64,000 bases of DNA, from NCBI GenBank assembly GCA_963840855.1, contig CAWJBB010000001.1, forward strand, positions 1 to 64,000, given 5' to 3'. Shown piece by piece: positions 38,580-60,695 of this stretch (positions within the stretch are counted from its first letter, which is position 1; each line of letters begins with the position of its first letter). A program made the position numbers and the translations under genes. A model generated the notes under the pieces. That model was not told where the DNA came from and made no database searches. It saw nothing but the letters and a program-made list of their open reading frames with translations. The stretch comes from an uncultured delta proteobacterium (lineage in GTDB: Bacteria > Desulfobacterota > Binatia > UBA9968).

Positions 38580-40509
<1,930 letters not shown>

Positions 40510-40510
40510 C

Positions 40511-40684
40511 TTGAATTCAGTTTAAGGTTCAAGGTTCAAGGTTCAAGGTGACGCCTTCGACGCGGTTCAAGGGCTTCGTCTGTTCAAGGTTCAAGGTTCA
40601 ATGTTCAACGTGGCGCCTCGGTTCAAGGTTCCGGGTTCAGCGACCCAGTCCCACCTTGAACATTGAACGTTGAACATTGAACCA
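40511..40684. repeat. Inverted heptamer array (GTTCAAG xN ... TTGAAC x4) in the selA-selB spacer
   Basis: About ten GGTTCAA-type units followed by cttgaac/attgaac/gttgaac/attgaac. Confidence 0.8.
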
Positions 40685-40719
40685 ATAACTTTGGTCATGG
40701 CCAGGTAATGCTGGAATCA

Positions 40720-42114
40720 CTACACTTTCTCTGTCGCGCTGAAATTTGGTACCAATTCGTTGGCGTCGAAGATCGTGCGCAGGTCGAGTAGAAAACGGTC
40801 GTCTTTGATTCTGCCGATGACCGGCGGGACGGCGCCGCGAAATTTGGCGGCGATGGCGTTGGCGCTTTGTTTGTCATGTTCAAGCGCGATCACGAACGTG
40901 GGCAGTTCTTCGGTGGGCAGCGCGCCGCTGCCGATTTGTGAAGTGGATTCTTCGACGTAGACCCGAAACTCCTGGCCCAGGGCCGTGCGTAGTTGGGCGG
41001 CGGCTTTTTCGCCCGTAGCACGAATGTCGGCGGGCGAACGGGTGAACGCTCTGAGCGTCGGAATCGCCTGCGCGATGTCCGGCGACTGGCGGTACAGACG
41101 CAGTGTCGCTTCCAGCGCCGCCAAGGTCAGTTTGCCGCAGCGCAATGCCCGCTGCAGAGGATTCTTGTTGATCCGGCCGATGAGTGCTTGCTTGCCGACC
41201 ATCAAACCCGCTTGGGGCCCCCCAAGAATTTTGTCGCCGCTAAACGTGATCACGTCGGCGCCGGCAGCGATGCGCTCGGCGACGATGGGTTCCTTGGGCA
41301 AGCCGTAACGGCTGAGATCTATGAGCGCGCCGCTGCCCAGGTCTTCCATGACCGGAAGCTTGTGCCGCTGGCCGATGGCCACCAGCTCTTCGAGGGTGAC
41401 TTCCGAGGTGAAGCCGACGACCTTGTAATTGCTGGTGTGGACTTTCAAAAGCAGCGCGGTTTTTTCATCGATGGCGTTCTCGTAGTCGGCCGTATGGGTG
41501 CGGTTGGTGCTGCCGACTTCCTTTAATAGCGCGCCGCTCTTGGCCATGATCTCGGGGATGCGAAAGGCGCCGCCGATCTCGATCAGCTCGCCGCGCGAGA
41601 CGATGACCTCTTTGCCTTGGGCAAGGGTGTTGAGACCCAGCAGAACGGCGGCGGCATTATTATTGACTACCGTGGCGGCTTCCGCGCCGGTGAGCTCGAC
41701 CAGCAGATTTTGCAGCGTCTCTTCACGCCGCCCGCGCTTGCCGGCGGCGAGATCGTATTCCAAGTTCACCGGGTAGCTGCCCACGGCGGTCATGGCATCG
41801 ATGGCCTCCGGCGCCAGCAGCGCCCGCCCCAGATTGGTGTGCAGGATCGTGCCGGTGGCATTGACGACGCGGATATGGCCGGGCCGGCTCTCCGCCGCGA
41901 TGCGCGCTTCGACCTGGCCGATTAATGCATCATCGTCGCTACTCGCGCCCTTCCCTTGCCTGATGGCGGCACGCAATTGATCGAGCGCTTCGCGGCACTT
42001 TTGCGTGACATAGTCGCGGTTGTAGCGGGTTAATAAAATCTCACAGCGCGGATGCTTGAGCAGCCGGTCCACCGAGGGAATTTCGCGCAGGAGATTTGCC
42101 GCTGGTTCGGTCAT
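40720..42114 (-). CDS. selA: L-seryl-tRNA(Sec) selenium transferase
   Basis: VVNATGTILHTNLGRA, VNNNAAA, SRGELIEIGG, FSGDKILGGPQAG. Confidence 0.96.
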   Translation of the reverse strand: MTEPAANLLREIPSVDRLLKHPRCEILLTRYNRDYVTQKCREALDQLRAAIRQGKGASSDDDALIGQVEARIAAESRPGHIRVVNATGTILHTNLGRALLAPEAIDAMTAVGSYPVNLEYDLAAGKRGRREETLQNLLVELTGAEAATVVNNNAAAVLLGLNTLAQGKEVIVSRGELIEIGGAFRIPEIMAKSGALLKEVGSTNRTHTADYENAIDEKTALLLKVHTSNYKVVGFTSEVTLEELVAIGQRHKLPVMEDLGSGALIDLSRYGLPKEPIVAERIAAGADVITFSGDKILGGPQAGLMVGKQALIGRINKNPLQRALRCGKLTLAALEATLRLYRQSPDIAQAIPTLRAFTRSPADIRATGEKAAAQLRTALGQEFRVYVEESTSQIGSGALPTEELPTFVIALEHDKQSANAIAAKFRGAVPPVIGRIKDDRFLLDLRTIFDANELVPNFSATEKV

Positions 42115-42147
42115 ACGAAAAATCAGGTTTGCACAAGGTGGGAGTAA

Positions 42148-42170
42148 ATTCAACATAAGAATATTGCCGC
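42148..42170 (-). other. Candidate attI site of the left integron remnant
   Basis: Minus strand CAATATTCTTAT-GTTGAAT, a GTTRRRY core about 80 bp upstream of and divergent from the intI remnant. Confidence 0.35.
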
Positions 42171-42234
42171 GACTCACGTAAGTAGATGGTCAACACGCGC
42201 CCTTGATAAATCTGATTGCCAGCTCGGTTGACTA

Positions 42235-42457
42235 CTGAATGGCACGCCCTGGTTGATGGCGATACTGTTGTACGGGGCAGGATTGCGGTTCTCCAGAAGG
42301 CCGTCAAAGATGCCTGGCTCAAGGCCAACATCGCGAAGCCAGCTGGCCCGCACACCTTGCGTCATTCCTTTGCGACCCACGTGCGGGCAGATGGCTACGA
42401 CATCCGGACCGTGCAGGAACTCCTGGGACACAGCGACGTGAGCACCACGATGGTGTA
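42235..42457 (+). pseudogene. intI: Integron integrase remnant (two internal deletions, truncated by the RIT element)
   Basis: [18 protein letters not shown] fused out of frame to [44 protein letters not shown]. Confidence 0.85.
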
Positions 42458-42600
42458 TTATGCGCAGTGGATGGTTATGTAGAGTCGCGTCGGTAAGTGC
42501 TTGCCTGTCAGGTCATTTCTCTTTTATCGCAGCACATAAGATTTCACGATGATCTCCTCGGTGGCCATAGGGGTCGCCGCCATTTCAAAGGAGGTCGATC

Positions 42601-43867
42601 ATGGATCAATCCAATCGTTTAGTTTCGGAGAACTCGCCGCTGGGCCGACTCGTTGAGAATGCCTTGGGCGAGCTCAAGCAGTTAGGGTACAGCAGGAGAT
42701 CGCTGAATCGGTATCGAGCAATATGGGAACACTTCATCGAGTTTTCCCGCCAGAAGAAACTGGGAGTTGAGTTTTCCGGGAATCTGGCAGCTCGCTTTGT
42801 GGAGGAGTATCCGGTTGGGAATGAAGTGGTGGATGAGCCGGGCGAGGAATGGCGGCGGCATATCGTGGTTGCTGTAAAGGTGCTTGCGGACTTTGCTCAA
42901 TACGGCCGCATCGGACGTGCCCGCACCGACATCGAAGAGATCCATCTTTGTCCGGCCACAAAGAAGGTGCTTCAGGACTACGAACAGTACTGTAAGGATC
43001 GACTTCAGTTTCGGCCGGCGACCCTTCAAAAGCGTAGCGGGGAACTCACGATCTTTTTGGATTTTCTGAGTTCGAGGAAAGCGAGGACCCTGGGCCAGAT
43101 TCAGGCGCTGGATCTGTCCGAATTCCTGTCTTTTCGGGGTCACTTGAAAGCCGAACACCGTCTCGCGACTGGTCTCGGATGTGCGTTCCTTTCTTCGGTT
43201 CCTGACCATGCGTGGGATTCTCCAAAAAGATCTCAGTGCGGAGTTGCCAACAATCCGTGTTCACAGAGATGCCAGTATCCCCTCGGTGTGGGATCACGAG
43301 CTCATCATCAAGCTGCTCGGGGCGATCGATCGCAGTTCGGCCAAAGGCAAACGGGATTACGCCATTCTCTTGCTGGCATGCCGGTTGGGATTGCGTACCG
43401 GGGATATTCGCACACTGAAACTGGATCATCTCCATTGGGAAGATTCCAGGATAGAGATTACGCAGTCGAAAACGACCACGCCCCTCAGCCTGCCTCTGAC
43501 CGAAGAGGTCGGCGAAGCATTGATCGACTACTTGAGATCGGGTCGTCCCAAAACCGCGCACCGAGAGATCTTCCTCAAATTGAACCCTCCTTTTGATCCT
43601 TTTGGTCGAAACAACAACCTATACGACGTTGTTACGTATTGGCGCCAACTGGCGGGGATCACATTTCGCACTCCACAAAAGCGAGGAATCCATTCCCTTC
43701 GCCACACTCTGGCAACTCGGCTTCTGGAGCAGGGTACTCCTTTTCCCACCATTGCGGACATCTTGGGGCATACCAGTTTGGAATCGACACGCATTTACGC
43801 CAAAGCCGATGTGGAAGCCTTGCGCAGCGTGGCGTTGGATACTGAGGAGGTGAATCATGCCGAATGA
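42601..43867 (+). CDS. RIT tyrosine recombinase A, frameshifted near 43148
   Basis: N-terminal SAM-like domains; GKRDYAILLL..GLR, HSLRHTLAT, LGH..STRIY; AAGGAGG RBS. Confidence 0.88.
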
Positions 43868-44840
43868 TCAATCCAGCGCTCAGTTCCAAAGCATCCTCGC
43901 TCCTCTCATGGACAGATTTGTCCAGGAAAAGAACGCCTGTGGATACCAGTATCATGAGCCAAGCCGAATCTTGCGGTGCCTCGACCATTTGCTGGTCCAG
44001 GAAGGGTTGACGACCTATGAGTTACCTCGACCCATCGCCCAAAAATGGTTAGCCAAGAGGACCCACGAAAGTCCCAGAACCCAACAGCAACGGGTCATGG
44101 TCGTTCGCCAGTTCTCCAGGTTCCTGTTCCGGCTTGGTTATTCTGCGTATGTGCCCGATTCAACACTGGCTCCACGAGGTCAATCGAGTTTTACACCAAG
44201 AATTTTGACTCATGAAGAGATTGGAAAGCTCCTTCAAGCCGTGGACGCGCTCGAACCCACCGCACGTTCGCCTCTGCGGCACCTGATTATGCCCGAAGTT
44301 TTCCGCCTCCTGTATGGCTGCGGTTTTCGTCTCGGGGAAGTGTTGAATCTACGTGTCCGAGACGCAGACCTCGATCAAGGTATCGTCACTGTACACCAAG
44401 GAAAGTTTAGAAAAGATCGCCTGGTTCCTCTCGCCCTGTCGCTGGTGAATCGCTTACGCAAGTACGCCGCCCGTTTCGAAAATTGCCCGCTCGATGCGAT
44501 ATTCTTCCCGGCGCCCGATGCAGGACCCTACAGCTTGCGGACCGTTTACGGCCTGTTTCGTAAACTGCTACTGCAGTGTGGGATTGCTCACGCCGGACGA
44601 GGCAAGGGACCCAGGGTCCACGATCTTCGCCACACCTTCGCAGTCCATACCTTACTGCGTTGGTATCGAGACGGCGAGGATCTCAACGCCAAACTTCCCC
44701 TTCTGGCCACCTACCTGGGCCATCAGCATCTTTTGGGAACGCAGCGCTATCTTCATCTCACCGCAGAACTTTTTCCCGAGATCACAGCGCGACTCGACGC
44801 GGTCTTCGGTGAGGTCATTCCGAGGAGGATTGAGCTATGA
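43857..44840 (+). CDS. RIT tyrosine recombinase B
   Basis: LLYGCGFR, GKFRKDRLVP, HDLRHTFAV, LATYLGH..TQRYL. Confidence 0.92.
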   Translation: MPNDQSSAQFQSILAPLMDRFVQEKNACGYQYHEPSRILRCLDHLLVQEGLTTYELPRPIAQKWLAKRTHESPRTQQQRVMVVRQFSRFLFRLGYSAYVPDSTLAPRGQSSFTPRILTHEEIGKLLQAVDALEPTARSPLRHLIMPEVFRLLYGCGFRLGEVLNLRVRDADLDQGIVTVHQGKFRKDRLVPLALSLVNRLRKYAARFENCPLDAIFFPAPDAGPYSLRTVYGLFRKLLLQCGIAHAGRGKGPRVHDLRHTFAVHTLLRWYRDGEDLNAKLPLLATYLGHQHLLGTQRYLHLTAELFPEITARLDAVFGEVIPRRIEL

Positions 44841-45847
44841 AACCGACCGATCTCTCAGTTCACGTGACGACCTTTTTGACCCATTACCTGGCCGCACAGC
44901 GGAATATGAGCCCCAATACCATCAAGGCATACCGCGACGTGTTTACTCTCCTTCTCAGATTCTGCCGCGATGTCCAGGGAATCGCGCCGGAAAGACTACG
45001 TCTCGAACAGATCGATGTTTCTTTGGTGGAAGCGTTCCTGGATTACTTGGAAAGAGAAAGGGGCTCTGCGCCCACTACACGAAACCATCGCCTTGCCGCC
45101 CTGCACGCATTTTTCCGATATGTTCAGTCCGAGGAGCCCGACCGCCTGCTTCAGTGCCAAAAAATCCTCGCCATTCCCCAGCGCCGACACGCCCGTCCGA
45201 CGGTTGGTTATCTTTCCAAAGAGGACTTGGGTGAAATTCTGGCGCAGCCGGACCTGACAAATCCAGGGGGCCGAAGAGACGCGGTTTTGCTAAGCATCCT
45301 CTACGATACCGGAGCGCGAGTTCAGGAGCTGATCGATCTTTCAGCGGGAGACGTGCGATTGGATCCACCCGCGCAGGTGCGCCTTATAGGAAAGGGACGC
45401 AAGATGCGTGCTGTACCTTTGATGCAGAAGACCGTCCAGCTCCTACGCGATCATATGCACGAAAACCATTTGGATCGTCCCGAACAGTTTGACCGGCCTC
45501 TTTTCCGCAACGGATGCGACCAACGATTATCCCGTTCTGGAATCCGCTACATCCTTCAAAAACATGTCAGGAAGGCACGAAGCAAGCGTGCGGGTCTGAA
45601 CCGAACGGTGACTCCGCACATGCTTCGCCACACCAAAGGAATGCACCTGTTACAGAGTGGAATCACCCCTGAGATGATCCGGGACTTCCTGGGCCATGTG
45701 GACGTCAAAACGACTCAGATCTATGCGAGGGCAAATCTTGAGATGAAGCGAAATGCTCTTGAGAGAATCAGCGACTCTTCGCCGGTCCAAGCGATTCCAT
45801 CCTGGCAACAGAACAAGAACCTTCTTGAGTGGCTCCGTTCTTTGTAA
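44837..45847 (+). CDS. RIT tyrosine recombinase C
   Basis: SPNTIKAYRD, TRNHRLAA, LYDTGARVQE, GKGRK, PHMLRH, LGH..TTQIYA. Confidence 0.92.
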   Translation: MKPTDLSVHVTTFLTHYLAAQRNMSPNTIKAYRDVFTLLLRFCRDVQGIAPERLRLEQIDVSLVEAFLDYLERERGSAPTTRNHRLAALHAFFRYVQSEEPDRLLQCQKILAIPQRRHARPTVGYLSKEDLGEILAQPDLTNPGGRRDAVLLSILYDTGARVQELIDLSAGDVRLDPPAQVRLIGKGRKMRAVPLMQKTVQLLRDHMHENHLDRPEQFDRPLFRNGCDQRLSRSGIRYILQKHVRKARSKRAGLNRTVTPHMLRHTKGMHLLQSGITPEMIRDFLGHVDVKTTQIYARANLEMKRNALERISDSSPVQAIPSWQQNKNLLEWLRSL

Positions 45848-45950
45848 AACATCGGGGGATACCCATGCCAGGTCTGAACCGAGCTCCGCCAACCGCAACC
45901 AGATTGTTATGTGGAGTGCCACCAACCAGATGGCCCTGCAATCAAAAGGG

Positions 45951-46979
45951 TTAGGGCACCTCACTGCGCATAACTACTGTCTGCGCATAATAAATCATGG
46001 TAGTCGTCACATCCGTGTGACCCAAAAGCTCTTGGACCGTTCGGATATCGTAGCCATCTTCGAGCAAGTGCGTGGCAAAAGAATGGCGAAACGTGTGCGG
46101 GCTTGCCGGCTTGAGAACCCCGGCTTTTTGCACGGCCTCTTTCACCGCCTTCTGCAAGACTGACTCGTGAAGATGGTGCCTGCGCCTCTCCCCCGTTACC
46201 CTGTCTGTGTAATGGTTGGTCGCCGGAAACACCCACTGCCATCCCCACTCTTTCCCGGCGTTTGGATATTTTCGCTCAAGGGCATTGGGCAGAGCGACTC
46301 GACCCAGGCCTCGCTCGAGATCGCACTGGTGTTGTCGTCTTATCACTTCTAGGTGCTTTGCGAGAGGTTCTTTGACTGCCGCGGGAAGCATTGTGTGCCG
46401 ATCCTTGTCTCCCTTACCGGCGCGAACTACGATCTGGTTGCTGGTGAAATCAAGATCCTTGACCCTCAGCCGCAAGCATTCCATCAATCGGACACCGGCT
46501 CCATAAAGCAACATGGCCATGATCCAATCGGAGCCGTCGAGGGAAGCGAGAATAGATCTGACTTCCTGCCGTGTCAACACTACCGGGAGCCTGTGCGGCC
46601 TTTTCGCCCGAACGACACCGTTCACATATCCGATGTCTTTCTTTAAAACCTCACGGTAGAGAAACAGGAGGGCATTGAGGGCTTGGTTCTGAGTGGACGC
46701 GCTGACGTGTAATTCGGTGGCCAGGCTCGAAAGAAATCCTCCGATTTCTTTTTCACCCATCTCCGCCGGATGGCGTTTGTTGTGAAAGAAAATAAATCGC
46801 TTGATCCAATGAACATACGCCTTCTCGGTCATATAACTGTAGTGGCGTGTTCGAATCGCCTGGCGCACTTGGTCGAGTAACTTTGGTTTCGCCGATGATG
46901 GTAGCACGCTGGCCGTTGGCGCCGGTTGATTCGCGGAAACTCGGTGTCGGCTCAGTTGGTATACTTTGGCGTTTTCCAT
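45951..46979 (-). CDS. intI: Integron integrase, C-terminal tail replaced by RIT sequence immediately after the catalytic Tyr
   Basis: [37 protein letters not shown], integron-specific insert [41 protein letters not shown] then YAQTVV instead of THVL; GGGAGG RBS. Confidence 0.93.
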
Positions 46980-47080
46980 GGTGTGTCCTCCCGTTGTGTG
47001 ACTCCATTCCAAGGGTTCCCGATCACGTGTAGCAAGAAGTCGTAGATCGCTTTTTGCCTGGCAGTCAGTGCGGGACGCAT
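46952..47080 (-). pseudogene. lexA N-terminal stub (42-aa ORF) directly upstream of intI
   Basis: [17 protein letters not shown] resembles LexA helix 1 (E. coli MKALTARQQEVFDLI); the similarity then stops. Confidence 0.65.
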
Positions 47081-47087
47081 GAAAGGC

Positions 47088-47116
47088 TATATACTGAAAT
47101 TAATTACAGTAGTCAA
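47088..47116 (-). promoter_or_regulatory. Sigma70 promoter with a LexA (SOS) box in the spacer, driving the lexA stub and intI
   Basis: TTGACT-17 bp-TATATA; palindromic TACTG-TAATTAATTT-CAGTA at 47092-47111 (CTG-N10-CAG). Confidence 0.8.
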
Positions 47117-47221
47117 CGGCAAGGCATAGTCATCGGTGTCGAGTCTAGAGTTAAGTAATTCTGCTTGAAGGATGTGACGGCAAACGATTGATGAGGAGAA
47201 GACAACCAGCGTTTTCCCCGT

Positions 47222-47243
47222 GAGTATAATTTACATGTTCGTC
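47222..47243 (+). other. Candidate attI site of the right integron
   Basis: GAGTATAATTTACAT-GTTCGTC upstream of and divergent from intI; unrelated gene debris starts right after the GTT. Confidence 0.4.
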
Positions 47244-47340
47244 AGATCCCCAAGTGCTGACACAGGAATTCCGGTTGGACGATCAATTCACTGCCCGTGC
47301 CCTCGAACGCGATGCGGCCTTTGACCAGAATGACGTTTCC
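47242..47340 (-). pseudogene. C-terminal fragment of a LivF-like ABC ATPase
   Basis: ILVKGRIAFEGTGSEL..LCQHLGI* with no Walker motifs upstream. Confidence 0.55.
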
Positions 47341-47585
47341 GTCGCCGGGCCCCCTGCCGATGAGAATATTGACGACTTCGCGCGCGGCTTGGGTTTGGCA
47401 GTCGACAAGGAGATCATCGCAAATCACTAATTCATTTTAAGCAACCTTTTAATGTTGCCTGACATGATCAAGCGAAGATCTTCGATTGGACTGACTACTT
47501 GTTGCGGTGGCACCAATTCCCAAACAACCTGGATGGCTCATACCAAAGTGGCGCAAAGGCGTGAACGCGCTTTGGGGATTGATCA

Positions 47586-48305
47586 CTATGCGGGTAAATC
47601 GGCAACAGGCACTCCCCTGTCAATCGCCGCGCATTTCACCGCTTCGGCGGCGGACTTGTGTCGCGCCATTTCCAACACTTCGGCGGCGCGCGCCCGCGGG
47701 ATGAAGCAGACCCCCGTGTCGTCGGCGAACACGATGTCTCCGGGGGCCACTCGAATACCGGCCACCACGATCTCGCTGTTGATCTCAATGGTTTCGATGC
47801 GCCATTTTCCGGTGACCGGCGTTATCTCGCTGGCCCAAATGGGATAGCCGACGCGGCGCGAATGAGCGAGATCGCGAACTCCACCGAAAACGATCGCTCC
47901 AACTTCGCCCTGGCGCTTTGCCGTCTGCGCTGAAATGCCGCCCATGTTCGATATTCCAACCACGCCGTCGATGACGACGATGTCTCCCGGCAGCGCTAAG
48001 TTGTGAGCTTCGAACTCAGCCATCCTGTTTACGTGCCGCCGAGCGGCTTCATAAACATGCTCGCGCTGGACGATATTACGCACCGTCAGCGCCGGCCCGA
48101 CGATCGAAGAGCCGGGAATCGTCGGCTTCAACACCGACGCGCCGATCACGCCGGTTATGCCAAGCTCGTCCATCACGTCCGATACAATACCGCTGGCATC
48201 TCCGAGCGCCCGAAACCCGTCGATAATACCCTCGGGCGGCCGCGGCGTTGCCATCAATCGGATTCGCTCACGCGCGATCTTGCCGGTCAGTCTTATTTCA
48301 GCCAT
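47586..48305 (-). CDS. RraA/HMG-aldolase family protein
   Basis: VSDVMD, IVGPALTV, GDIVVID..GG, GGVRD, PGDIVFADDTGV. Confidence 0.88.
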   Translation of the reverse strand: MAEIRLTGKIARERIRLMATPRPPEGIIDGFRALGDASGIVSDVMDELGITGVIGASVLKPTIPGSSIVGPALTVRNIVQREHVYEAARRHVNRMAEFEAHNLALPGDIVVIDGVVGISNMGGISAQTAKRQGEVGAIVFGGVRDLAHSRRVGYPIWASEITPVTGKWRIETIEINSEIVVAGIRVAPGDIVFADDTGVCFIPRARAAEVLEMARHKSAAEAVKCAAIDRGVPVADLPA

Positions 48306-48330
48306 CGTCCCACTCCGTTTTTTTACTTCA

Positions 48331-50751
48331 TCATCCGCCCAGTAGCCGCGAAAGGGCAGCCGTGATTGTCTGTGCGATGCGTTCAGAGGTCAAAGAAGAC
48401 GGCAGGGGAATATGGAGAGCTGGTTTATCATCCGCTGGATCTTTTTTGACGAGCGGTGCAATGGCCGCTTCGATATTGCGGGCGAGTTGTCCAATTCCAG
48501 CGCTTTGAGGGCGCGGCCCTTCGCGCGGCGCTCTCCCGGCGGCGGGTTGAGTAGAGCCTTCATTGGATGCGCCAGTTTCGCTTAGTGAGAGACTTTCGAG
48601 AAATTTCATCCCTGCCTCCAGCAACATCCCCAGCGCGTGACCGATACCGTCCGGCCTCTCGAACCCTGGTTGAGCAGCCGACTCCCGGTTAATCGTCTCG
48701 CCGCGTTTACCGGTCTTCATGTCGGTCGCTGGCTCGGCCGGCGCCGCCGCGTCCGGCACAATTTCTTTTAAGGTTTCCATCATCGATCTTCGGCCCAGCT
48801 TTTCGAAGCTAACTTCGGAACTGGCGCCGTCGAACAGACCTTCAAACAGCGCCTTCTTGAGCCGAATGGTTTCCCAAACGCGCTCCTCGATGCTGTTTTC
48901 GGTCAACAAGTGCACGGCAAGCACCGGCCGCGATTGTCCCATGCGGTGAACCCGAGCGATGCGCTGTTCAAGACGGGCGGGATTCCAGGGCTGCTCGATG
49001 TTGATCACCGCGGAGGCAGCCTGAAGATTGATGCCGACGCCGCCGGCATCCGTGGACAGGAATACTTTTATGTCGTTTTGCTCGCGAAATTTGGCGATCA
49101 GTTGGCCGCGCCGCCGCGTCGGGATGGCGCCGTGCAGCGAGACGTAACCGATTTTCATCTTCGCCAGCAACTCACCGACCAGGGAATTCATTTTTTCCCA
49201 CTCGCTGAAGACCACGACTTTGCGCTTCTCTTCGATGACGAGTTCTCGCAGGATTTCCTTTAGCTCCTCCATCTTCGGCGAGACCTTGGTTTCCTTGTCA
49301 AAGAGAAATGTCGAGTCACAGATCATGCGCATGTTTTGAATCGCGCACAGCAAGCGCTGCTGATCCACGGGCGACAGCCACCCCTGGCGCTCCATTTTGC
49401 GCACGAGCGCGGCGACGATAATTTGCTGATCGCCATAGTATGACGCCTGCTCCGGACTCATGGGAACGCGAAAGATTTTATCGGTGCGGGGCGGGAGATC
49501 TTTCAACACCTGGTCGCGGCGCCGGCGCAGCAAAATCGGCGCAAGCTTTTCCCGGACTTGATCCAAATTGCGGTAGCCGATGAGTTTTCCCTTCTCATTG
49601 ACTTGCTGGTGCTCGCTCAGAAAACGGAACGCCGGCCCGAGCCGTCTGCCGTCCACGAACTGAACCACGGAATAGAGCTCTTCCAGTTTGTTTTCCAAAG
49701 GCGTCCCAGTAAGGACCAGAGCGTAACGGCTGCGCAAGAGTTTTATGGTACGGGCGGTGGCGGTTTCCCAGTTGCGGATGCGCTGAGCCTCATCCAAAAT
49801 GATCAGATCGGGCAACAGCGCCGACACGCTATCGATATCGCGGCGCACCAGCTCATAGTTTACGATCTTGAAGAAAGCCTCTGAGTTGTATAACGCGCCG
49901 CGCCGCTCGGACGAACCGTCGATCACCACCGCGCTGCGGTCGCTGAAGCGATTGATCTCTGTCAGCCATTGATGCTTCACCGAAGCCGGACAAATCACCA
50001 GCGCGCGGCTGATGCCCCGGTGGCGCGCCAGCATTTCCGCGGCGCCGATCGCCTGGATGGTTTTGCCCAGTCCCATATCATCGGCGATAATGGTCCTTCC
50101 CCGACCAGCAGCAAAGAGCACACCGCGCATTTGAAAAGGATACAGAGGAACTTTCAGGAGTTTGTCCAGCGGCAGCTTGCCCTGCTCCAACAAGCGCAGC
50201 TCTTTGGCTTCAAATGCCAGCGATTCGGCCGCCGCTATTTCGCGGTCGACCCATTCCAGAACGTCCCCGTAAATCACGACCTTTTCATCGAGCGAGCGAA
50301 ATCGGCCCAACGCCTGAGCAAACTGATTCAGCCGGTCTGGTTTGAGCAAACCCTCGGCGTCGAAAAACTCATCTTTCAATTCGCGCAGATCCGATGAGAT
50401 CTGGCGCGGAGATTTGATGCGCACTTTCGGCGGGTCGCGGTAGTCTAGGTAGATAGTTGTGTGCTCGCGCTGGTAGCGCGCATGATCGAGCTTGCGGCCA
50501 AAGCGTGAGCGCGCGCGCAGCAAGACCGCCTCGATATGTTTGCAGGTGCCGAGCGTGTTTACGGCGTAGTCGGGGCAAGCGCAGTAATTTTCAAAAAGCC
50601 CCACGCCGCGCAGCGCCACGCGATACAACCGTTTGCTCGCCGGAGAAAAGACCTGGTAATCCCCAAATACGGCCAGGCTCTGCGACTCTATTTTAAAAGT
50701 TTCCTTGCGCGCCCGTAACCGCCGCTCCGCGATTTGTTCTTCAATCAGCAT
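48331..50751 (-). CDS. SWIM zinc finger / SNF2 family helicase
   Basis: CACPD..TCKH, ADDMGLGKT, DEAQ, LTGTPLEN, STDAGGVGINLQ, WNPARLEQRIARVHR. Confidence 0.92.
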   Translation of the reverse strand: MLIEEQIAERRLRARKETFKIESQSLAVFGDYQVFSPASKRLYRVALRGVGLFENYCACPDYAVNTLGTCKHIEAVLLRARSRFGRKLDHARYQREHTTIYLDYRDPPKVRIKSPRQISSDLRELKDEFFDAEGLLKPDRLNQFAQALGRFRSLDEKVVIYGDVLEWVDREIAAAESLAFEAKELRLLEQGKLPLDKLLKVPLYPFQMRGVLFAAGRGRTIIADDMGLGKTIQAIGAAEMLARHRGISRALVICPASVKHQWLTEINRFSDRSAVVIDGSSERRGALYNSEAFFKIVNYELVRRDIDSVSALLPDLIILDEAQRIRNWETATARTIKLLRSRYALVLTGTPLENKLEELYSVVQFVDGRRLGPAFRFLSEHQQVNEKGKLIGYRNLDQVREKLAPILLRRRRDQVLKDLPPRTDKIFRVPMSPEQASYYGDQQIIVAALVRKMERQGWLSPVDQQRLLCAIQNMRMICDSTFLFDKETKVSPKMEELKEILRELVIEEKRKVVVFSEWEKMNSLVGELLAKMKIGYVSLHGAIPTRRRGQLIAKFREQNDIKVFLSTDAGGVGINLQAASAVINIEQPWNPARLEQRIARVHRMGQSRPVLAVHLLTENSIEERVWETIRLKKALFEGLFDGASSEVSFEKLGRRSMMETLKEIVPDAAAPAEPATDMKTGKRGETINRESAAQPGFERPDGIGHALGMLLEAGMKFLESLSLSETGASNEGSTQPAAGRAPREGPRPQSAGIGQLARNIEAAIAPLVKKDPADDKPALHIPLPSSLTSERIAQTITAALSRLLGG

Positions 50752-50790
50752 GATTACTGGGAACTCTCCCGCTATTTTCCGCGCCCGCTT

Positions 50791-51840
50791 TTAAAAAGCC
50801 ACCGGATACATTCGCTTTGGATTCTCCGTCATGATCTTTTGCTTGGTGTCCATCGACACATCTTCTCGCGCCAGGAACTTTTCGACGTTCTCATGGAACT
50901 CGGTACGCGGTTCGTGGGGAAAATCGGTCGCACAAAATAGAATGTCGTCGCGCAATAGTTCGGCGATTTGCGCGATGCTCCGGTCCTCGAGCTCGCAATG
51001 AATAAAAATTCTGCCGCTCTTCAAATGCTCCGAAGGCACCACTTTACATTCGGGCGCCTGAGCACTCCGGTGCTCATACTCCATATCCAACCGCTCCATC
51101 AAATAAGGCACCCAACCGCAGCCGGCTTCCGCGTAGGCGATCCGTAACGACGGGAAACGGTCGAACACCCCGCTATAGATCATGCTCGTCATCTGGATCA
51201 TCTGCGCGAAGCCGTGGCTCAGGGCTCGCACCTCGATAAGTTTATCGAACGCATCCAAGCCAATCCCCTGCGTCGGCGCCGCGTGCACCGCCAGCAACGC
51301 TCCCAATTCCTGCGCCGTTTCGTAGACTGGCCTATACATGTCGTGACCCAAAGGCTGGCGCAAGCCAACGGCGGGAAGCACGGCACCGACAAAGCCGAGT
51401 TCCCCGACGGCGCGCCGCAACTCTTTCACGGCATCGGGAATCGACTGCAAAGGGATCAACGCCATCCCTTTGAGCCGCTTCTCCGGTTTGGTAAAGCACT
51501 CGTAGAGATAATTGTTATAGCCCGCGGCCAACGCGCAGGCCCATTCCTTGTCCCGCACCATGCCGAAAGTTAGGCCGGACGTCGGATATAAGACTGACCA
51601 GGCAATCTCGTCCTCATCGAGAAACTGTTGCCACTCTTTCAGACTGCCCTTGACGATGTAGCGCCCTTTGCCATCGACCACTCTGAGGGCCTGGCGGTGA
51701 AAACCGTCCAGTGTTGGGAAAAAAGAAAACGAGAGCAAATCCTCGCGCCCTCTATACGGCGGCGGCAAAAACTTCAGAAGCTCGGTATCGCTTTCAACAA
51801 CATGCCCGTCGGCATCGATAAAACCCTTGACATTCGTCAT
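50791..51840 (-). CDS. Amidohydrolase_2 family protein
   Basis: IDADGHVVE, VLYPT, GVFDRFPSL, EAGCGWVP, ATDFPH. Confidence 0.9.
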   Translation of the reverse strand: MTNVKGFIDADGHVVESDTELLKFLPPPYRGREDLLSFSFFPTLDGFHRQALRVVDGKGRYIVKGSLKEWQQFLDEDEIAWSVLYPTSGLTFGMVRDKEWACALAAGYNNYLYECFTKPEKRLKGMALIPLQSIPDAVKELRRAVGELGFVGAVLPAVGLRQPLGHDMYRPVYETAQELGALLAVHAAPTQGIGLDAFDKLIEVRALSHGFAQMIQMTSMIYSGVFDRFPSLRIAYAEAGCGWVPYLMERLDMEYEHRSAQAPECKVVPSEHLKSGRIFIHCELEDRSIAQIAELLRDDILFCATDFPHEPRTEFHENVEKFLAREDVSMDTKQKIMTENPKRMYPVAF

Positions 51841-51909
51841 AGCGAACCTCCATGGCCGCACTTAATGATATAGACACTTCCACGGTGTTCACAATCTCTT
51901 TTCCGGCGC

Positions 51910-51990
51910 CTATCTATAAACATTCTTTATAAACCCGCTGGTTTCAAGCTCGCGCACGAAACGATCGTCAATGACCGAGTCGACTTTGTC
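51910..51990 (-). pseudogene. C-terminal remnant of an SsuA-like substrate-binding protein
   Basis: DSVIDDRFVRELETSGFIKNVYR*. Confidence 0.55.
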
Positions 51991-52061
51991 AAGAACGGAC
52001 GTTTCTTATTCTCCTTCGCCGAATACCTCGCAGCTTGGTGCGAGGATGAAGGTGACGAGAA

Positions 52062-52180
52062 CCCTCCGTAGCCTTGGCGAAGGAGGGTGGAAGGGCTTCG
52101 GCCTTCGCCGACCGAAGTCAGCTACGGCCGACGAAGGTCGGAGAATTTCGCACAGATACCTCGGAGCTTTGCTCCGAGGA
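52062..52180. repeat. Cluster of hairpins (REP-like and IS200/IS605-end-like)
   Basis: CCCTCC-GTAGCCTTGGCGAA-GGAGGG; CCTTCG..CGAAGG; CCTCGGAGC-TTT-GCTCCGAGG perfect hairpin. Confidence 0.6.
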
Positions 52181-52259
52181 GCTTCATCCGCTTCGCGAAA
52201 GTACGCGCCATTTTTTGCTTTCTTTCGTTACGCGGGGTTGATATGGAGTCCAGTGGTTG

Positions 52260-52441
52260 CGGGAGTGTCGATTCAGCCCTTACCGTCGCTCGAAGGGCTC
52301 AAGAACATGCAAAGACTCCTGGCGATGCAGAACCCCAAACTCGCCGACGTCAACCCGGCTAATCTCATGGACACCACTTTCATACGCAGGCTGGAGGAAA
52401 GTGGTTTTTTTGCCCAGCTGCAGGCGCGTTATCGAGAATAA
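52260..52441 (+). pseudogene. C-terminal remnant of an SsuA-like substrate-binding protein
   Basis: PLPSLEGLKNMQRLL..NPKL..DTTFIRRLEESGFF. Confidence 0.6.
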
Positions 52442-52546
52442 CCGTAAAAATCATCAGAATCTCGCTTCGCGTTAGCAAACATACGACACCCAATATCCGG
52501 AAGATTGATCCGTGGAATGTGACGTGAGGGTTCGAGGGTTAAGATA

Positions 52547-53856
52547 ATGAGCAGGCGTTGGTCATCAGCTTTGGCTGAACACGCGAAGCTTTGGGGTTTA
52601 CTCGGATTGATCATTGTTCTGGGCTTCTGGCCGCCTATCAGTTTGTCGAGCCTCCCCCGCCCGAGGCCATACGGATTGCAACGGGAGCACAAGATGGAGC
52701 CTACTATGCCTTCGCCCAGAAATACGCCCGTTTGCTCACACGCGACGGTATTACTCTCGAGATCGTTTCCACCGCAGGATCCGCCGAAAATCTCGACCTC
52801 CTCAAAACCGGCGCGGTTTCGCTGGCGTTGGTGCAGGGAGGCAGCGCGGCGGATGCGGACACCGACCAGGTGGAATCCCTCGGGAGTTTGTTTCTCGAAC
52901 CGGTTTGGGTTTTTTATCGAGGACCAACGAGGATCAAACGTCTCTCCGACTTGAAAGGAAAACGCGTGGCGGTGGGCGTCGCCGGAAGCGGCACTCATCT
53001 TCTCGCCCTACGGCTCCTTTCGGCCGACGGAATCACGGAGTCAAATGCGACGCTGCTTCGTGAGAATCTGGCTCAGGCCGCCCCCTCGCTTTTAGAAGGT
53101 AAGATCGATGATGCTTTTTACGTTGCTTCGGCCGAGGCACCGCTAGTTCGCAAGCTCCTACAGGATCCTGCCATTAGACTGCTGAGTTTCGAGCGTACGC
53201 CAGCTTATACTCATGTGTTTCCGTTTTTGACTTCCGTAACTCTTACCGAAGGAGTGCTGGACTTGGAGCGCAATACTCCCTCCCACGACACAAGGCTCGT
53301 GGCAGTTGCAGCCAGCTTGGTAGCGCGAAAAGATTTAGATGACAATCTGATCCCAGCTCTCCTGAAGGCGGTTACCGAAGTCCATCAAGAGGGAGGCGTA
53401 TTGGAGCGAAGAGGACAGTTTCCGTCGATAGACCTCGTCGACCTCCCATTGAACGACGACGCCCGGCGCTATGTCACAGACGGCCCTTCGCTTTTGTATC
53501 GATGGTTTCCGTACAGAACCGCGGTGCTCCTGGACCGTTTGAAAATATTGATCCTGCCTTTCTTGGTTTTGATCCCGCTGTTTAAGATCGCCCCGCCGCT
53601 TTACAATTGGCGCATTCGGTCCCGGATTTACCGCTGGTATGCGGCGCTGCGCGAAATCAATGCAGTAATCGAGCAAGAGGGAAGTGCGGGAGAAGCGGAA
53701 GCGGCCTTGAAGCGGCTAAAGGAAATAGACAAAGAGGTCGCTTCGGTGTCGGTTCTCCTTTCTTACACGGGAGAATTGTACAACCTGCGGTTACATATCG
53801 GCTTCATTGAAGAGAAACTTGCAAAGCTGGCAAACCCGCCGGCGCGTGATTGTTGA
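52547..53856 (+). CDS. TAXI family TRAP solute receptor with C-terminal membrane extension, frameshifted near 52630
   Basis: N-terminal TM (LWGLLGLIIVLGF) in a different frame from IATGAQDGAY, TAGSAEN, VQGG, LKGKRVAVG..GSGT; YNWRIRSRIYRWY, ELYNLRLHI. Confidence 0.85.
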
Positions 53857-53959
53857 GAAAAAGTCGTGCAAGTCAACGAGGCGGCCAATAACCGGACCCA
53901 GTGCGGGGCCGTGGACAGCGGGCTTCAGGTCGGGTAATGCTGTGCCAGATGGAGTACAC

Positions 53960-54037
53960 ATGTCGTCGGCAAAACTGAACCCCGATGTTATCGATGCGGA
54001 CGCGCACGTGGTTGAGACCGGGCGAGTGTGGGAGTAG
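53960..54037 (+). pseudogene. Amidohydrolase N-terminal stub
   Basis: GGAG RBS then MSSAKLNPDVIDADAHVVETGRVWE*. Confidence 0.6.
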
Positions 54038-54209
54038 CGTCTCCGCGGTGAGCCACACGGAAGATTGAAGACCCAAAATAAATAAGATCAGAAGAGGAGT
54101 GGTCTTAACCCTGCCCGTCGAAAGCCAGAGCGGGGGAATAGAGTGATTCGGTAAAAAAACGCAAAGCGCATGGGCCAAAGAGCAAAAGGTAAGAAACGGG
54201 GGAAAACTC

Positions 54210-55199
54210 ATGAAGAAAAAAGTCATTGGCTTAGCGCCTGGCGCTTTTCTCTTTGCGCTTAGCGTTTCCGCCCCGGCGCAACAGACAGGGAAAATCTTCC
54301 GCATCGGATTCCTGGATAGTAGCACTGCTGCCGGTAGCGCGGTGCTCGTGGAGGCATTCCGGCAAGAGCTGAGCAAGCTTGGATGGATTGAAGGAAAGAA
54401 TATCGCTTTCGAGTACCGATTTGCCGAGCAAAAGCCTGAACGACTACCTGAGCTTGTGGCGGATATGGTTCGTCTCAAGGTTGATCTTATTGTGAGCACA
54501 TCGACGCCATCAGCGTTAGCGGCCAAGAGCGCCACCACTACCATCCCTATCGTGATGGCAAACGCTGGAGACCCTGTGGGTGCAGGTCTGATTGCCAGTT
54601 TGGCGCGGCCGGGGGGCAATGTCACTGGGCTCTCAGGTTTAAATTTCCAACTGAACACGAAAAGACTAGAGATACTCAAGGACGCAGTCCCCAAGCTCGC
54701 GCTAGTTGGACTTCTGCAGTCGGCGGGAAGGGGCGGACCAGGAAACCTCCAAATGAAAGAGATCAGGCCTGCGGCTCAGGCACTAAAGTTAAAATTGGTG
54801 GAGATCGCGACTCAACCCGATCCCAAAGGTTTAGAGAGTGCCTTTCAAATCGCAAAGCAGAAACAGGTCAAAGCGATTATGACAACCACTAGTCGGCCCT
54901 TTTTCGCTGAAAGAAAGCGGATCGTTGAGTTTGCAGTCAAGTACCGCTTGCCGGCTATTTACTTCCAGAAGGAGTTTGTCGATGACGGCGGTCTCATGTC
55001 CTACGGGGCGGACTTTGATGACTTGTACCGGCGCGCGGCCGTTTACGTGGACAAGATCTTGAAAGGCGCCAAACCGGCTGACCTGCCGGTGCAGCAGGCA
55101 ACGAAGTTTGAATTCGTCATTAACCTCAAGGCGGCTAAGCAGATCGACCTGACCGTTCCGCCGGAAGTGCTTGCACGGGCGGATAAAATCATCAAGTAA
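54210..55199 (+). CDS. ABC transporter substrate-binding protein (ABC_sub_bind family)
   Basis: RIGFL, GWIEGKNIAFEYR, DPVGAGLIASLARPGGNVTG, GGLMSYG, KILKGAKPADLPVQQ, VINLKAAK. Confidence 0.93.
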   Translation: MKKKVIGLAPGAFLFALSVSAPAQQTGKIFRIGFLDSSTAAGSAVLVEAFRQELSKLGWIEGKNIAFEYRFAEQKPERLPELVADMVRLKVDLIVSTSTPSALAAKSATTTIPIVMANAGDPVGAGLIASLARPGGNVTGLSGLNFQLNTKRLEILKDAVPKLALVGLLQSAGRGGPGNLQMKEIRPAAQALKLKLVEIATQPDPKGLESAFQIAKQKQVKAIMTTTSRPFFAERKRIVEFAVKYRLPAIYFQKEFVDDGGLMSYGADFDDLYRRAAVYVDKILKGAKPADLPVQQATKFEFVINLKAAKQIDLTVPPEVLARADKIIK

Positions 55200-55227
55200 A
55201 TCAATTTTTTTGGAAAGGACTAAATCC

Positions 55228-56271
55228 ATGAGCGATCTCACTGCCATCGATGCGGACGGACACGTCATCGAAAAGGAAAGCGACATTCGGAAATACTTGC
55301 AGGAGCCGTGGAATCGGCGTTCGACGGCGCTTCGACCGGGCGACCAGCCCTGGGACAATTACATGTTCGATCACTTTGTAACCGAGCGCACCTGGAGCAA
55401 GCTCTCGGCCCGGGAACAGGTTACCCGCTGGGACGAAATCTTGGACGAGCATCAGATGGAATATGCCGTCTGTTTTCCAACCGGTTCAGGAAGCGTCGTC
55501 CGGTTGCAGGAACTGCCGTTTCAAATCGCGGTGGCGCGCGCCTGCAACGATCAGTTCGCCGGTGAATACAATGCGCTTTCCGACCGCGTGAAGTGCGTCG
55601 GCGTCTTGCCGATGCGCTCGCCGCAGGCCGCCGCCGAAGAGTTGGAGCGCGCCGTGAAGGAACTGGGAATCATCGGCTTTGAGATTCTTCCGGTCGGTTT
55701 GCCGTTGGCGCTTGGCGATAGCTTCTATGATCCGGTTTACGCCGCGGCGGAGAAGTGCGGCGCAGTTCTCGGCATCCATGGCACCCGCAGCTGGTCGCGG
55801 GAGCTCGGCGCTGAGGGTTTGAACACTTTCGCCGAAGTCCACGCCTATGCCTTTACCGCAGGCATTTTGCTCCAGTTTACCAGCATGATCTGCCAGGGCG
55901 TGCCGGTGCGCTTTCCCAGGCTTCGCTTCGCGTTTCTAGAGATCGGTGCCACCTGGTTGCCCTACTACCTGGATCGTCTCGACGAGCACTGGGAAAAACG
56001 CGCCGAGTTCGAGATGCCGCTGCTCAAAGACAAGCCCAGCGAGATGGTAAGAAAATCGGAGGTTTACTTCAGCATCGAATCCGGCGAGTCACAATTGGCG
56101 CAAGCGGTCGAATACGTCGGCGCGGACCATTTTCTTTACGCCTCGGATATCCCGCATTGGGACTGTGAGTTTCCCGGAAACCTCCAGCATCTTCGCAACC
56201 ACGAGGGATTGTCCGCCGACGTTAAAGAAAAGATCCTGTACAAAAACGCCAAGCGACTTTTTAATTTGTAA
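55228..56271 (+). CDS. Amidohydrolase_2 family protein
   Basis: IDADGHVIE, ACND, RFPRLRFAFLE, YASDIPHWD, NAKRLFNL. Confidence 0.9.
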   Translation: MSDLTAIDADGHVIEKESDIRKYLQEPWNRRSTALRPGDQPWDNYMFDHFVTERTWSKLSAREQVTRWDEILDEHQMEYAVCFPTGSGSVVRLQELPFQIAVARACNDQFAGEYNALSDRVKCVGVLPMRSPQAAAEELERAVKELGIIGFEILPVGLPLALGDSFYDPVYAAAEKCGAVLGIHGTRSWSRELGAEGLNTFAEVHAYAFTAGILLQFTSMICQGVPVRFPRLRFAFLEIGATWLPYYLDRLDEHWEKRAEFEMPLLKDKPSEMVRKSEVYFSIESGESQLAQAVEYVGADHFLYASDIPHWDCEFPGNLQHLRNHEGLSADVKEKILYKNAKRLFNL

Positions 56272-56279
56272 ATTCTTGC

Positions 56280-56366
56280 GTCATTACGGGCAAGCTGGCG
56301 ATAGCTAGCTTGACCCGGAATCCAGGAAAATCAAAGGGTTCTGGATTCCGCTTCCGCGGGAATGAC
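56280..56366. repeat. REP-like palindrome (GTCAT..GGAATCCAG / CTGGATTCC..ATGAC)
   Basis: Inverted arms enclosing a short AT-rich loop. Confidence 0.7.
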
Positions 56367-56429
56367 GGACTCGGACTCCAGACTTTGTAAACGAACTTCA
56401 AAGGACATGAGTGCGCTTTAGGAGTCGAC

Positions 56430-57713: not shown

Positions 57714-58276
57714 TGATCCTCGTGAAGAGATCGGCCGTTAATGACAAGCCCGATGAGAGCACGAATTTGACGACCTATTCCGACAACGAAATCGCCAGGC
57801 TCATACTGCATCGCGAGGTGGAAGCCTTTATCTTCGAGGAAGCGGCTTTGCTCGACCAGTGGCGTCTGGACGACTGGCTCGCGCTTTTTACCGACGATGC
57901 GCGATACCTCGTACCGGCTACGGACACGCCCGAGGCGGATCCCCGCAAAGCCCTATCGATCATTGACGACGATACGTCGCGACTACGAGGGCGGGTCGAG
58001 CGCTTGCAAAGCCGCCATGCCCATCGCGAGTTTCCCTGGTCCCGCACCCGGCGCTTGGTGACTAACGTGCGGGTCACGGAGGTCGTGGGGACGGATATTC
58101 ATGTCACCGCCTCGTTCCTCGTCTATCGCATCCGCGGCGGTCATGTGGACCCTCTCATCGGCCGATACGAGTACACGTTGCGGCGCATCGGAAAAGCGCT
58201 CAAGATCGCCTACCGAAAGGCCGTGCTGGATCTGGAAGCGCTCCGGCCGCACGGCACGGTGAGTATTATTTTGTAA
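57713..58276 (+). CDS. Aromatic ring-hydroxylating dioxygenase beta subunit
   Basis: EAALLD..WLALFTDDARY, EFPWSRTRRLVTNV; the start codon is uncertain. Confidence 0.9.
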   Translation: MILVKRSAVNDKPDESTNLTTYSDNEIARLILHREVEAFIFEEAALLDQWRLDDWLALFTDDARYLVPATDTPEADPRKALSIIDDDTSRLRGRVERLQSRHAHREFPWSRTRRLVTNVRVTEVVGTDIHVTASFLVYRIRGGHVDPLIGRYEYTLRRIGKALKIAYRKAVLDLEALRPHGTVSIIL

Positions 58277-58427
58277 CGTCGTGGGGTCAGACTTGGGTCA
58301 GACTTCTACCACTTGACTATCTTTGCCGTTCGTAGATTGCCGATAAGATATATCCCTGCGCCGGGCCGCTCAAGGTTAGCGCTCGCAGGCTCACTTCCGA
58401 GTAATTTCCTTGAGCAGCTTGTGCCAT

Positions 58428-60491: not shown

Positions 60492-60695
60492 AAGAAGACG
60501 CAATGGCCTGTCGGTCAACCCTGATACTGATCATGATCGTACCCTAAAATCAGGTCGTGAACCGCAAACACACGGTTCTTTCGAGTCGGGCCTTGCAAAT
60601 TAATTCTCGTTCGGTTCTTCGCTCCGAAAACTTCGATTCTTCGCCTGCGTTTCAGAATGACATTAAGGCACAGTCTCTTAGATTAGAGAGGTGCG

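Follow-up and report, generated by a model that had tools for sequence, protein, structure and literature searches.

The window analysed here is a 64,000-nucleotide stretch of DNA from an uncultured delta proteobacterium (Desulfobacterota; Binatia; UBA9968), corresponding to positions 1-64,000 of the forward strand of CAWJBB010000001.1 (GCA_963840855.1). It carries a recombinase in trio (RIT) element, in which three tyrosine recombinase (YR) genes lie between terminal inverted repeats, and which is joined on both sides to a truncated gene that points inward and stops at the codon of its catalytic tyrosine, namely an integron integrase gene (intI-B) on the right and a short remnant that is likely of the same kind (intI-A) on the left. 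A comparison with homologous RITs suggests that the clade to which the element belongs has the catalytic-Tyr codon of many kinds of YR gene as its target, intI being in the minority. With respect to the origin of the window arrangement, we tentatively prefer the reading that a RIT of this Tyr-codon-targeting clade underwent a second exchange, of its internal recombination site (site M) with intI-B, which gave a form with a 5' gene part on both sides (double-5' form), although we put this at slightly less than an even chance.

Structure of the RIT element and its junctions

The RIT extends from 42458 to 45990 (3533 bp) and contains three overlapping YR open reading frames (ORFs) on the + strand, as indicated by the ORF listing and by Pfam and NCBIfam scans. 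Its terminal repeats are bipartite and 27 nt long, with outer 10-nt arms that are identical at both ends (42458 and 45990). The left terminal inverted repeat (42458-42484, + strand) consists of the outer arm TTATGCGCAG (42458-42467), a 7-nt spacer and the inner arm TTATGTAGAG (42475-42484), and the right one (45964-45990, - strand) consists of an outer arm (45981-45990), a 7-nt spacer and an inner arm (45964-45973), both arms reading TTATGCGCAG. The first-pass annotation had placed a 3533-bp RIT with terminal inverted repeats at 42458 and 45990, and this was confirmed by the repeat positions and the three YR ORFs.

Both flanking genes point inward and stop at position 297 of the 315 positions of the integron-integrase model TIGR02249, after the TA of the Tyr codon, and no intI 3' tail (THVLN...) was found beside either RIT end, which bears out the earlier statement that the two flanks are cut at the same Tyr-codon position and lack their tails. 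The right one, intI-B (45991-46979, - strand), is complete from the start to the catalytic Tyr, only its 3' tail being missing, and was aligned with positions 1-297 of TIGR02249 with a score of 440.7 bits (cut-off, 265). The left one, the intI-A remnant (42235-42457, + strand), ends with ...STTMV-TA at the catalytic Tyr codon and has lost the 5' three quarters of the gene as well as the 3' tail. TIGR02249 was its best match (positions 241-297, 90.2 bits), with the profile homology covering 42288-42457, and its DNA is 72% identical to that of intI-B over 159 nt (42294-42452). The remnant amounts to about 57 codons by the profile, or 74 at most, and lies about 100 nt from the start of selA. Its identity as IntI is likely, not proven, since the score is below the cut-off of the model, though the model is the best match. 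The annotation had described two inward-pointing intI 5' parts; the right part, the inward orientation and intI as the best match stand, whereas the left flank is an internal remnant.

For an independent sequence check, Logan contigs of four sequencing runs (X1, X2, X16 and X17) were aligned to the window. One low-depth contig of run X1 joins 42231 to 42389, and a related strain may have a still shorter intI-A remnant between selA and the RIT.

The junctions read ...ACGATGGTGTA followed by TTATG on the left and ...ACCATGATTTA followed by TTATG on the right. The catalytic codon itself survives, because the first T of the repeat completes TAT, and both frames read ...Y-YAQ... and come to a stop a few codons on. 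The last six nucleotides of each gene, which we refer to as the junction hexamer, are GGTGTA on the left (42452-42457, + strand), made up of a Val codon and the TA of Tyr, and GATTTA on the right (45991-45996, - strand; TAAATC on the + strand), made up of an Ile codon and the TA of Tyr. An uninterrupted allele of intI-B was present in run X16 (849 nt aligned, 5 differences) and reads ...ATGATTTAT ACG CAC GTG..., that is, IYTHVLNRGGKG. The same kind of junction is found in dozens of related loci, so that the Tyr-TA junction pattern is far beyond chance.

Within the element, ritA (42601-43867), ritB (43857-44840) and ritC (44837-45847), all of which are on the + strand, each match PF00589, and their order is collinear with that in 52 homologous trios. 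The subfamily names RitA, RitB and RitC were given from gene order and homology, no curated model being used. All three Rit proteins have recognisable HxLRH and LGH...Y motifs; RitB and RitC are intact tyrosine recombinases, the latter with an N-terminal SAM-like domain, and the long N-terminal part of RitA, which has no Pfam match, fits the 'two CB domains' reported in PMC8138268. The ritA gene is broken by a +1 frameshift (a 1-nt insertion at about 43147) into ORFs at 42601-43596 and 43181-43867, with the catalytic domain in the second. This frameshift was absent from the three nearest relatives of the window RIT (L012-L014) and from the contigs of all four aligned runs, and is thus private to the window, where the three recombinases are consequently not all intact with their R-H-R-Y set. 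The comparison with the contigs of the four runs also revealed a second window-private 1-nt insertion, at 45944 in the subterminal spacer of the right end. With the exception of the broken ritA, the element has the features that define RITs, namely three YR genes in the order ritA-ritB-ritC, short ORF overlaps and terminal inverted repeats. The overlap between ritA and ritB (11 nt) is slightly above the range of 4-8 bp given for RIT ORFs in PMC3414803, and that between ritB and ritC is 4 nt.

The repeat tip together with its hexamer (GATTTA followed by TTATGCGCAG) was also observed to resemble the coding region of the catalytic Tyr of ritC itself (CAGATCTATGCGAGG; window 45730-45745 compared with 42452-42470). 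It may be speculated that the arms of the attachment (att) sites derive from, or mimic, the Tyr region of a YR gene.

RITs that are 93-99% identical to the window RIT were found in metagenomes (soil, bog, sediment and others) of at least 11 studies, and the contig depth of such near-identical RITs was several-fold above that of the window flanks. The lineage of the window RIT is widespread and multi-copy.

Anatomy and targets of homologous RITs

Homologous RITs were collected by a RitB scan with one genome per species, which gave 52 loci with RitB identities of 53-87%, spread over Acidobacteriota, Burkholderiales, other Proteobacteria, Planctomycetota and 'Entotheonella'. Both RIT ends were readable in 31 loci besides the window, and for these the outer repeat boundaries were located and the flanks were read. 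One anatomy, consisting of a G side and a P side, is shared by 24 of the 31. The G side is an inward-pointing YR gene that ends with ...LGH-x-TT-x-x-TA at the RIT boundary. The P side is a stretch of 6 nt, a 20-bp palindrome (PP'), another 6 nt and then the displaced YR 3' tail, and the tails shown all resume with the Tyr codon (YTHVLN..., YLH..., YVQV... and others). PP' is composed of two back-to-back 10-nt arms that resemble the repeat tips, mostly AAATGTGCTG/CAGCACATTT and, in the closest relative of the window RIT, TTATGTGCAG/CTGCACATAA. There were 33 matches to PP', in 33 of the 52 loci, each at a distance of 6 nt from the tip of a RIT repeat. Either orientation occurs, with the G side lying at the end next to ritA in 11 loci and next to ritC in 13.

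The remaining 7 of the 31 loci are built otherwise. L030, in a metagenome-assembled genome (MAG) of Planctomycetota, and L051, in a MAG of Steroidobacteraceae, have a G side at both ends, with the rit genes in frame in both; L040 has a G side and, on its right, a short flank of about 20 nt in which the left-flank YR motif is copied; L029 and L031 have flanks classed as 'O'; and L032 and L033 are degenerate.

As for the genes targeted, 22 of 30 G-type flank ORFs, the two of the window included, matched PF00589 and 6 matched PF12835 (Integrase_1) at E <= 1e-5. A separate set of flank ORFs gave matches to PF00589 in 7 of 8 cases, with the end of the match always at position 163-165 of the 172 positions of the profile. 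The integron-integrase model was matched at E <= 1e-20 by 6 of the 30 flank ORFs and the equivalog by 4, the window flanks being counted in both, and clear intI targets outside the window, as judged by reading of flank and tail, are those of L012, L014, L034 and the left side of L051. Thus, among the nearest relatives of the window RIT, L012 and L014 are in intI and L013 is in another YR gene. The target families are diverse and include Xer-like genes, Integrase_1 genes and also ritA of another RIT, as in L019, where a RIT lies inside such a ritA with its ...IYAKVD codon region as the target. Because of this diversity of YR targets, the clade is not integron-specific, and the proposal that the window harbours an integron-targeting element is not supported, intI being a minority among many YR families. 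What holds of the expected link between homologous RITs and intI is that their flanks are cut at the Tyr codon of a YR gene, as a site-specific property of the family, the gene not always being intI. The idea that one flank might be a constant part of the element was rejected, because the flanks differ among the closest relatives.

Some further arrangements were observed among the loci. A solitary PP'-type palindrome, with no RIT within 1.5 kb, is present at L064 (1501-1520; G004:C2:216521-216540), where it has a YR-gene tail on one side and, on the other, a hairpin of about 110 bp (...GCTAAAAATGCTCTGCA), and hairpin sequence of the L064 type replaces the YR gene at the RIT left end of L029 and L031. 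RITs are often nested in or beside other RITs, with L040 and L055 adjoining a partial or second RIT. Lastly, in L067 (1913-1960), a JGI metagenome contig of 4997 nt, two diverged RITs lie head to head with their ritA ends facing and share one PP', with different hexamers on each side of it. From the sequence of L067, it seems that a RIT can be inserted at the P'-hexamer-tail site of another.

Hexamers at the RIT ends and the proposed mode of movement

Near-identical RITs within one genome allow the hexamers to be followed from copy to copy. L020 and L062, which are in one genome, have RITs that are 99.8% identical and flanks that are homologous over 2.7 and 1.3 kb (95.6-97.1% identity) and inverted relative to the RIT, which indicates that the same site was used in both orientations. 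L049, L018 and L015, all in one Acidoferrales MAG, have RITs that are 99-100% identical and different YR-gene targets. The hexamers of L049 are GCGATA by the left tip and GAAATA both by the right tip and at the tail. GAAATA is kept by the right tip in L018, in which GCGATA is found at the P'-tail position and a new hexamer, ACGTTA, at the left tip facing the gene. ACGTTA is in turn kept by the left tip in L015, in which GAAATA is found at the P'-tail position and the new ACGCTA at the right tip facing the gene. This chain indicates that the target hexamer stays at the gene-side site (attL), that the element hexamer goes to the tail-side site (attR) and that the unused site keeps the older one. 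The element shared by these three loci looks like one that was recently active. The anatomy of the RITs, their target rule and this hexamer pattern are apparent from the comparison of sequences.

Both hexamers of the window were likewise encountered in near-identical RIT copies elsewhere. PP' follows the RIT right end, past TAAATC, in Logan contigs of X1 and X16, so that GATTTA sits between the right repeat and the palindrome, and it precedes the RIT left end in contigs of X16 and X2, with the GGTGTA of the window between the palindrome and the left repeat at the place of 42452. In a second X2 contig, GATTTA is found in place of GGTGTA before the left end (place 42456). In addition, one X17 contig links 45996 to 42452 through exactly the 20-nt palindrome, which is the circle junction predicted by the mode of movement set out below.

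According to the movement that we propose, an integrated copy would hold three core-type sites, each composed of an arm, 6 bp and another arm. These would be attL (gene arm-hexamer-repeat tip), the internal site M (repeat tip-hexamer-P) and attR (P'-hexamer-tail arm). attL and attR are direct repeats, and if they recombined, the target gene would be made whole again and the RIT set free as a circle, the junction of which (right tip-6-P.P'-6-left tip) would have two mirror-image att sites. Owing to these two sites, either of which could be used, the circle could be inserted in either orientation, with PP' always coming to lie on the tail side, and the unused hexamer would be carried onward as a footprint of an earlier target. 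Both orientations and the tail-side position of PP' agree with the arrangement found in the relatives, and the pair L020 and L062, the hexamer chain and the contigs of the four runs lend the scheme support.

Origin of the arrangement in the window

Both RIT junctions in the window are of the attL type, GGTGTA adjoining the left tip and TAAATC the right one; the tails are absent and no PP' palindrome is present at either RIT end, so that the window does not represent a canonical integration. Compared with the canonical form of 24 of the 31 loci, two different 5'-side junctions require a secondary exchange. To this extent the first-pass annotation, which had proposed a secondary exchange after site-specific hits, is upheld, whereas the two-copy history that it had in mind is not shown. 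In the second-exchange reading that we prefer, the RIT would have entered intI-A, site M (right tip-TAAATC-P in the sister copies) would then have recombined with the Tyr-codon site of the convergent intI-B, and PP', both tails and the intervening DNA would have been deleted, or inverted and then lost. The hexamer of the intI-B allele is the same as the site M hexamer of the sister copies (GATTTA), and the two sites therefore share one 6-bp spacer. An element with two attL sites and no attR can no longer excise, and the window copy is probably a stranded, dead by-product. Stranding of this kind would fit with the private frameshift of ritA and with intI-A having been eroded to about 57 codons. 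The double-5' form is also found in L030 and L051, and partly in L040; hence, with L030 and L051, it appears to be a recurrent outcome and not a one-off. No PP', and hence no RIT-less reciprocal product, was found in the genomes of L030 and L051, which may be incomplete.

Several points weigh against this reading. Static sequences are the basis on which we infer the circle, the reaction between site M and a target and the order of events. The X17 joint that corresponds to a circle junction could equally be a tandem pair or a path of the de Bruijn graph through copies in both orientations, and a degenerate pattern of the circle junction had a single match in JGI metagenome contigs, the head-to-head pair of L067, which is not a joint of a ritC end to a ritA end. 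Gene-side and tail-side hexamers differ in many canonical loci, and the rule has exceptions in the form of non-TA hexamers (L032, L033 and L055), O-type flanks (L029 and L031) and an element without a left repeat (L033). As to the window itself, the ritA frameshift, which falls in a homopolymer-like run, may be an error of the assembly. The right junction is spanned by no independent contig, with its exact 22-mer having 0 matches in metagenome contigs, and the contig pieces shown for the four aligned runs stop at the right end or run into PP' or an intact intI tail. The left junction is reached by just one low-depth X1 contig, which covers no more than about the first 24 nt of the repeat and lacks 157 nt (42232-42388). 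Finally, no conserved synteny was found beside selA, or beside the RraA-like gene on the other side, in the same-genus genomes G005 and G006. The DNA that neighbours these breaks in G005 and G006 is scattered or absent in the source genome of the window (G000), and since synteny breaks on both sides, a deletion cannot be demonstrated. The claim that the element rearranges the chromosome between integron loci is likewise not shown, synteny being broken on both sides and no cassette array being seen.

An end product identical to the window could also result from homologous (RecA-type) recombination between two RIT copies that were inserted in two intI paralogues in opposite orientation, which would leave one hybrid RIT with two 5'-side junctions, and sequence cannot tell this from a site-specific exchange. 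Multi-copy RITs with 99-100% identity within a genome are common (L015/L018/L049 and L020/L062), both insertion orientations exist (11 vs 13), and the hexamers of the 5' part and the tail are unlike in several canonical loci (L028, L044 and L018), as flank shuffling predicts. However, G000, a 7.1-Mb MAG of 93 contigs with a completeness of 94% and a contamination of 8.3%, in which the window is the start of contig C1, contains only one RIT copy and neither another RIT end nor PP'. The second RIT copy or reciprocal junction envisaged by the annotation was thus absent from the assembly in searches with the whole RIT, the intI model, and PP' and the repeat tip. A reciprocal tail-PP'-tail joint, which the second-exchange reading would call for if the sites had been inverted, was not found in G000 either by the scan with PP' and repeat-tip motifs. 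With a single copy and no PP' in G000, only the deletion version of the two-copy explanation fits. The identity of the right hexamer with the site M hexamer of the sister copies, which is expected under a site-specific exchange, would moreover be a mere coincidence. Recombination between two copies seems rather unlikely to us.

The fragmentation of the MAG into 93 contigs and its contamination of 8.3% leave room for an assembly chimera, in which two canonical insertions, either within the same genome or among co-occurring strains, contributed the left and the right flank, respectively, and were connected through a 3.5-kb repeat that had collapsed. Such an artefact would be in line with the near-identity of the RIT in metagenomes of at least 11 studies at several times the depth of its flanks, with the lack of any independent contig across the right junction and with the outcome of a sequencing-run search with window words, in which no run contained half of them. 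It is harder to reconcile with an assembly from which PP', an orphan tail junction and a second RIT end are all absent, with the independent occurrence of double-5' forms in L030 and L051, or with a contig that passes through the repeat, which usually means a single copy or spanning reads. In one X1 contig, DNA upstream of selA is linked to the last part of the intI-A remnant and the first bases of the repeat, though this is weak. Furthermore, both window flanks are similarly diverged from G006 (88-89% identity on the left and 89-90% on the right), which makes a chimera between species unlikely. We regard an assembly chimera as improbable.

The short intI-A piece could, alternatively, be DNA that the RIT brought along from the flank of a previous intI insertion, through aberrant excision or one-ended transfer, in which case intI-B would be the sole resident target. 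The piece is only about 170 bp in length and adjoins unrelated DNA about 100 nt from selA, hexamers demonstrably move with RIT ends, and the right flank of L040, of about 20 nt, is a copy of the YR motif of the left one. On the other hand, the closest relatives (L012-L014) are flanked otherwise, by PP' or a different intI, and the sister copies in the four runs have PP' and not an intI-A fragment before the left repeat. There is also no junction signal at the outer edge of the fragment, and the strain represented by the X1 contig, 95% identical in the flank, seems to share the arrangement of selA, remnant and RIT, as expected for an old resident locus. We consider a travelling intI-A piece very improbable.

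Beyond the second exchange that we prefer for the window, a broader reading can be formulated, which we offer with reserve, as the doubts somewhat outweigh the support. In it, RITs would home to the catalytic-Tyr codon of YR genes and move through a circle with a 52-bp palindromic junction (repeat tip-6 bp-P, P'-6 bp-repeat tip), with insertion in either orientation, 6-bp footprints and truncation of the recombinase genes of integrons, phages, islands and other RITs. The spare att site would fuse, delete or invert DNA between any two recombinase genes, and the window would be a fossil fusion of two intI genes.

Genomic neighbourhood

The ORF listing places selB and selA to the left of the RIT, and the RraA-like gene and then an SNF2-type helicase gene to the right of intI-B. 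A search for attC-type repeats over 47000-64000 found no attC-like repeat array in the 17 kb past the right intI, where the neighbouring genes are ordinary in size and orientation; this was a repeat search only, with no dedicated attC model. A search of G000 with the intI model yielded, as the sole other clear intI remnant, a RIT-free gene on contig C21 (G000:C21:55442-55882; locus L003, 1489-2054, minus strand), in which an internal deletion has removed most of the N-terminal half and the C-terminus is intact (TTMIYTHVLN tail; ...TTMIYTHVLNRGGRG...). The host organism carries several decayed intI genes.

Between selB and selA, a palindromic repeat of about 115 nt is present at 40574-40690, with the look of a repetitive extragenic palindrome or a miniature inverted-repeat transposable element (REP/MITE type). 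Copies of it with 72-97% identity were found on at least six other contigs of G000 (C10, C22, C40, C65, C87 and others) and in related genomes. An Rfam scan of 39500-48000 gave just two matches, at this palindromic repeat, to a plant microRNA model; they were below the threshold and symmetric, and were dismissed.

Significance and comparison with known systems

RITs are widespread, and the comparison of the window with about 50 relatives provides a concrete and testable picture of their movement, which comprises the TA of the Tyr codon as the target, the PP' att structure with 6-bp spacers, the hexamer footprint rule and the double-5' by-product. Through double-5' joints, DNA between recombinase genes would be linked or deleted. 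Provided that the picture is true, integrons, prophages and islands would have their integrases truncated by RITs, and the replicons that carry them could be fused, which would be relevant to the decay of integrons and to rearrangement among mobile elements. The window copy alone is of modest interest; it is the target rule and the att architecture that are of wider value.

RITs were reportedly first described in Cupriavidus metallidurans CH34, in work attributed to Van Houdt in 2009 and 2012 and to Ricker in 2013. Known RITs have, like the window RIT, three overlapping YR genes in the order A-B-C and terminal inverted repeats of about 30 bp and, like the homologue set, multiple identical copies per genome and a distribution over many phyla. 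The window RIT is unlike them in that its palindrome-bearing side is missing, its ritA is frameshifted and its flanks are two YR 5' parts. The kind of element is thus already known, whereas the target rule and mechanism were not found described in the literature searched: a full-text search, the scope of which lay outside the original RIT descriptions and supplements, turned up no mention of the Tyr-codon target, PP' or hexamer footprints in connection with RITs, and the first-pass statement that RITs are reported to insert into recombinase genes found no backing there. A 2023 review of YR transposons (PMC10214605) gives a length of 34 bp for RIT terminal inverted repeats (Table 1 footnote) and the entry 'NT' for RIT target specificity, empty-site formation and movement, with no RIT transposition reproduced. 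PMC5737581 describes imperfect palindromic repeats of 47 and 51 bp at RIT ends and suggests hairpin intermediates.

The closest parallel to the hexamer relay concerns Tn554 and the elements named SEs, which, according to PMC10214605, insert site-specifically and leave in the new site a 6-bp footprint brought from the donor flank. Like RITs, these are tyrosine transposons with multiple recombinases, and their 6-bp footprint parallels the relay seen among RITs. They differ in having their own proteins (the non-recombinase TnpC/Srap) and targets, and neither a back-to-back palindromic double att site nor insertion in either orientation is reported for them.

Other systems offer chemistry that may be relevant. 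Coupling sequences of the Tn916 type are non-homologous overlap regions of 6-7 bp, which give heteroduplex joints that segregate at replication, and in Xer/IMEX recombination or the single-strand recombination of integrons, one strand is exchanged and the product is resolved by replication. Either chemistry would give the RIT pattern of the target hexamer at attL and the element hexamer at attR. However, the Tn916, Xer/IMEX and integron systems use one or two recombinases and other targets, unlike the RIT trio. IS1111-attC elements and group IIC-attC introns, for their part, home to the attC sites of cassette arrays. These elements and the RIT clade have in common that they prefer a component of the integron, whereas the RIT target is the integrase coding sequence, as one of many YR genes.

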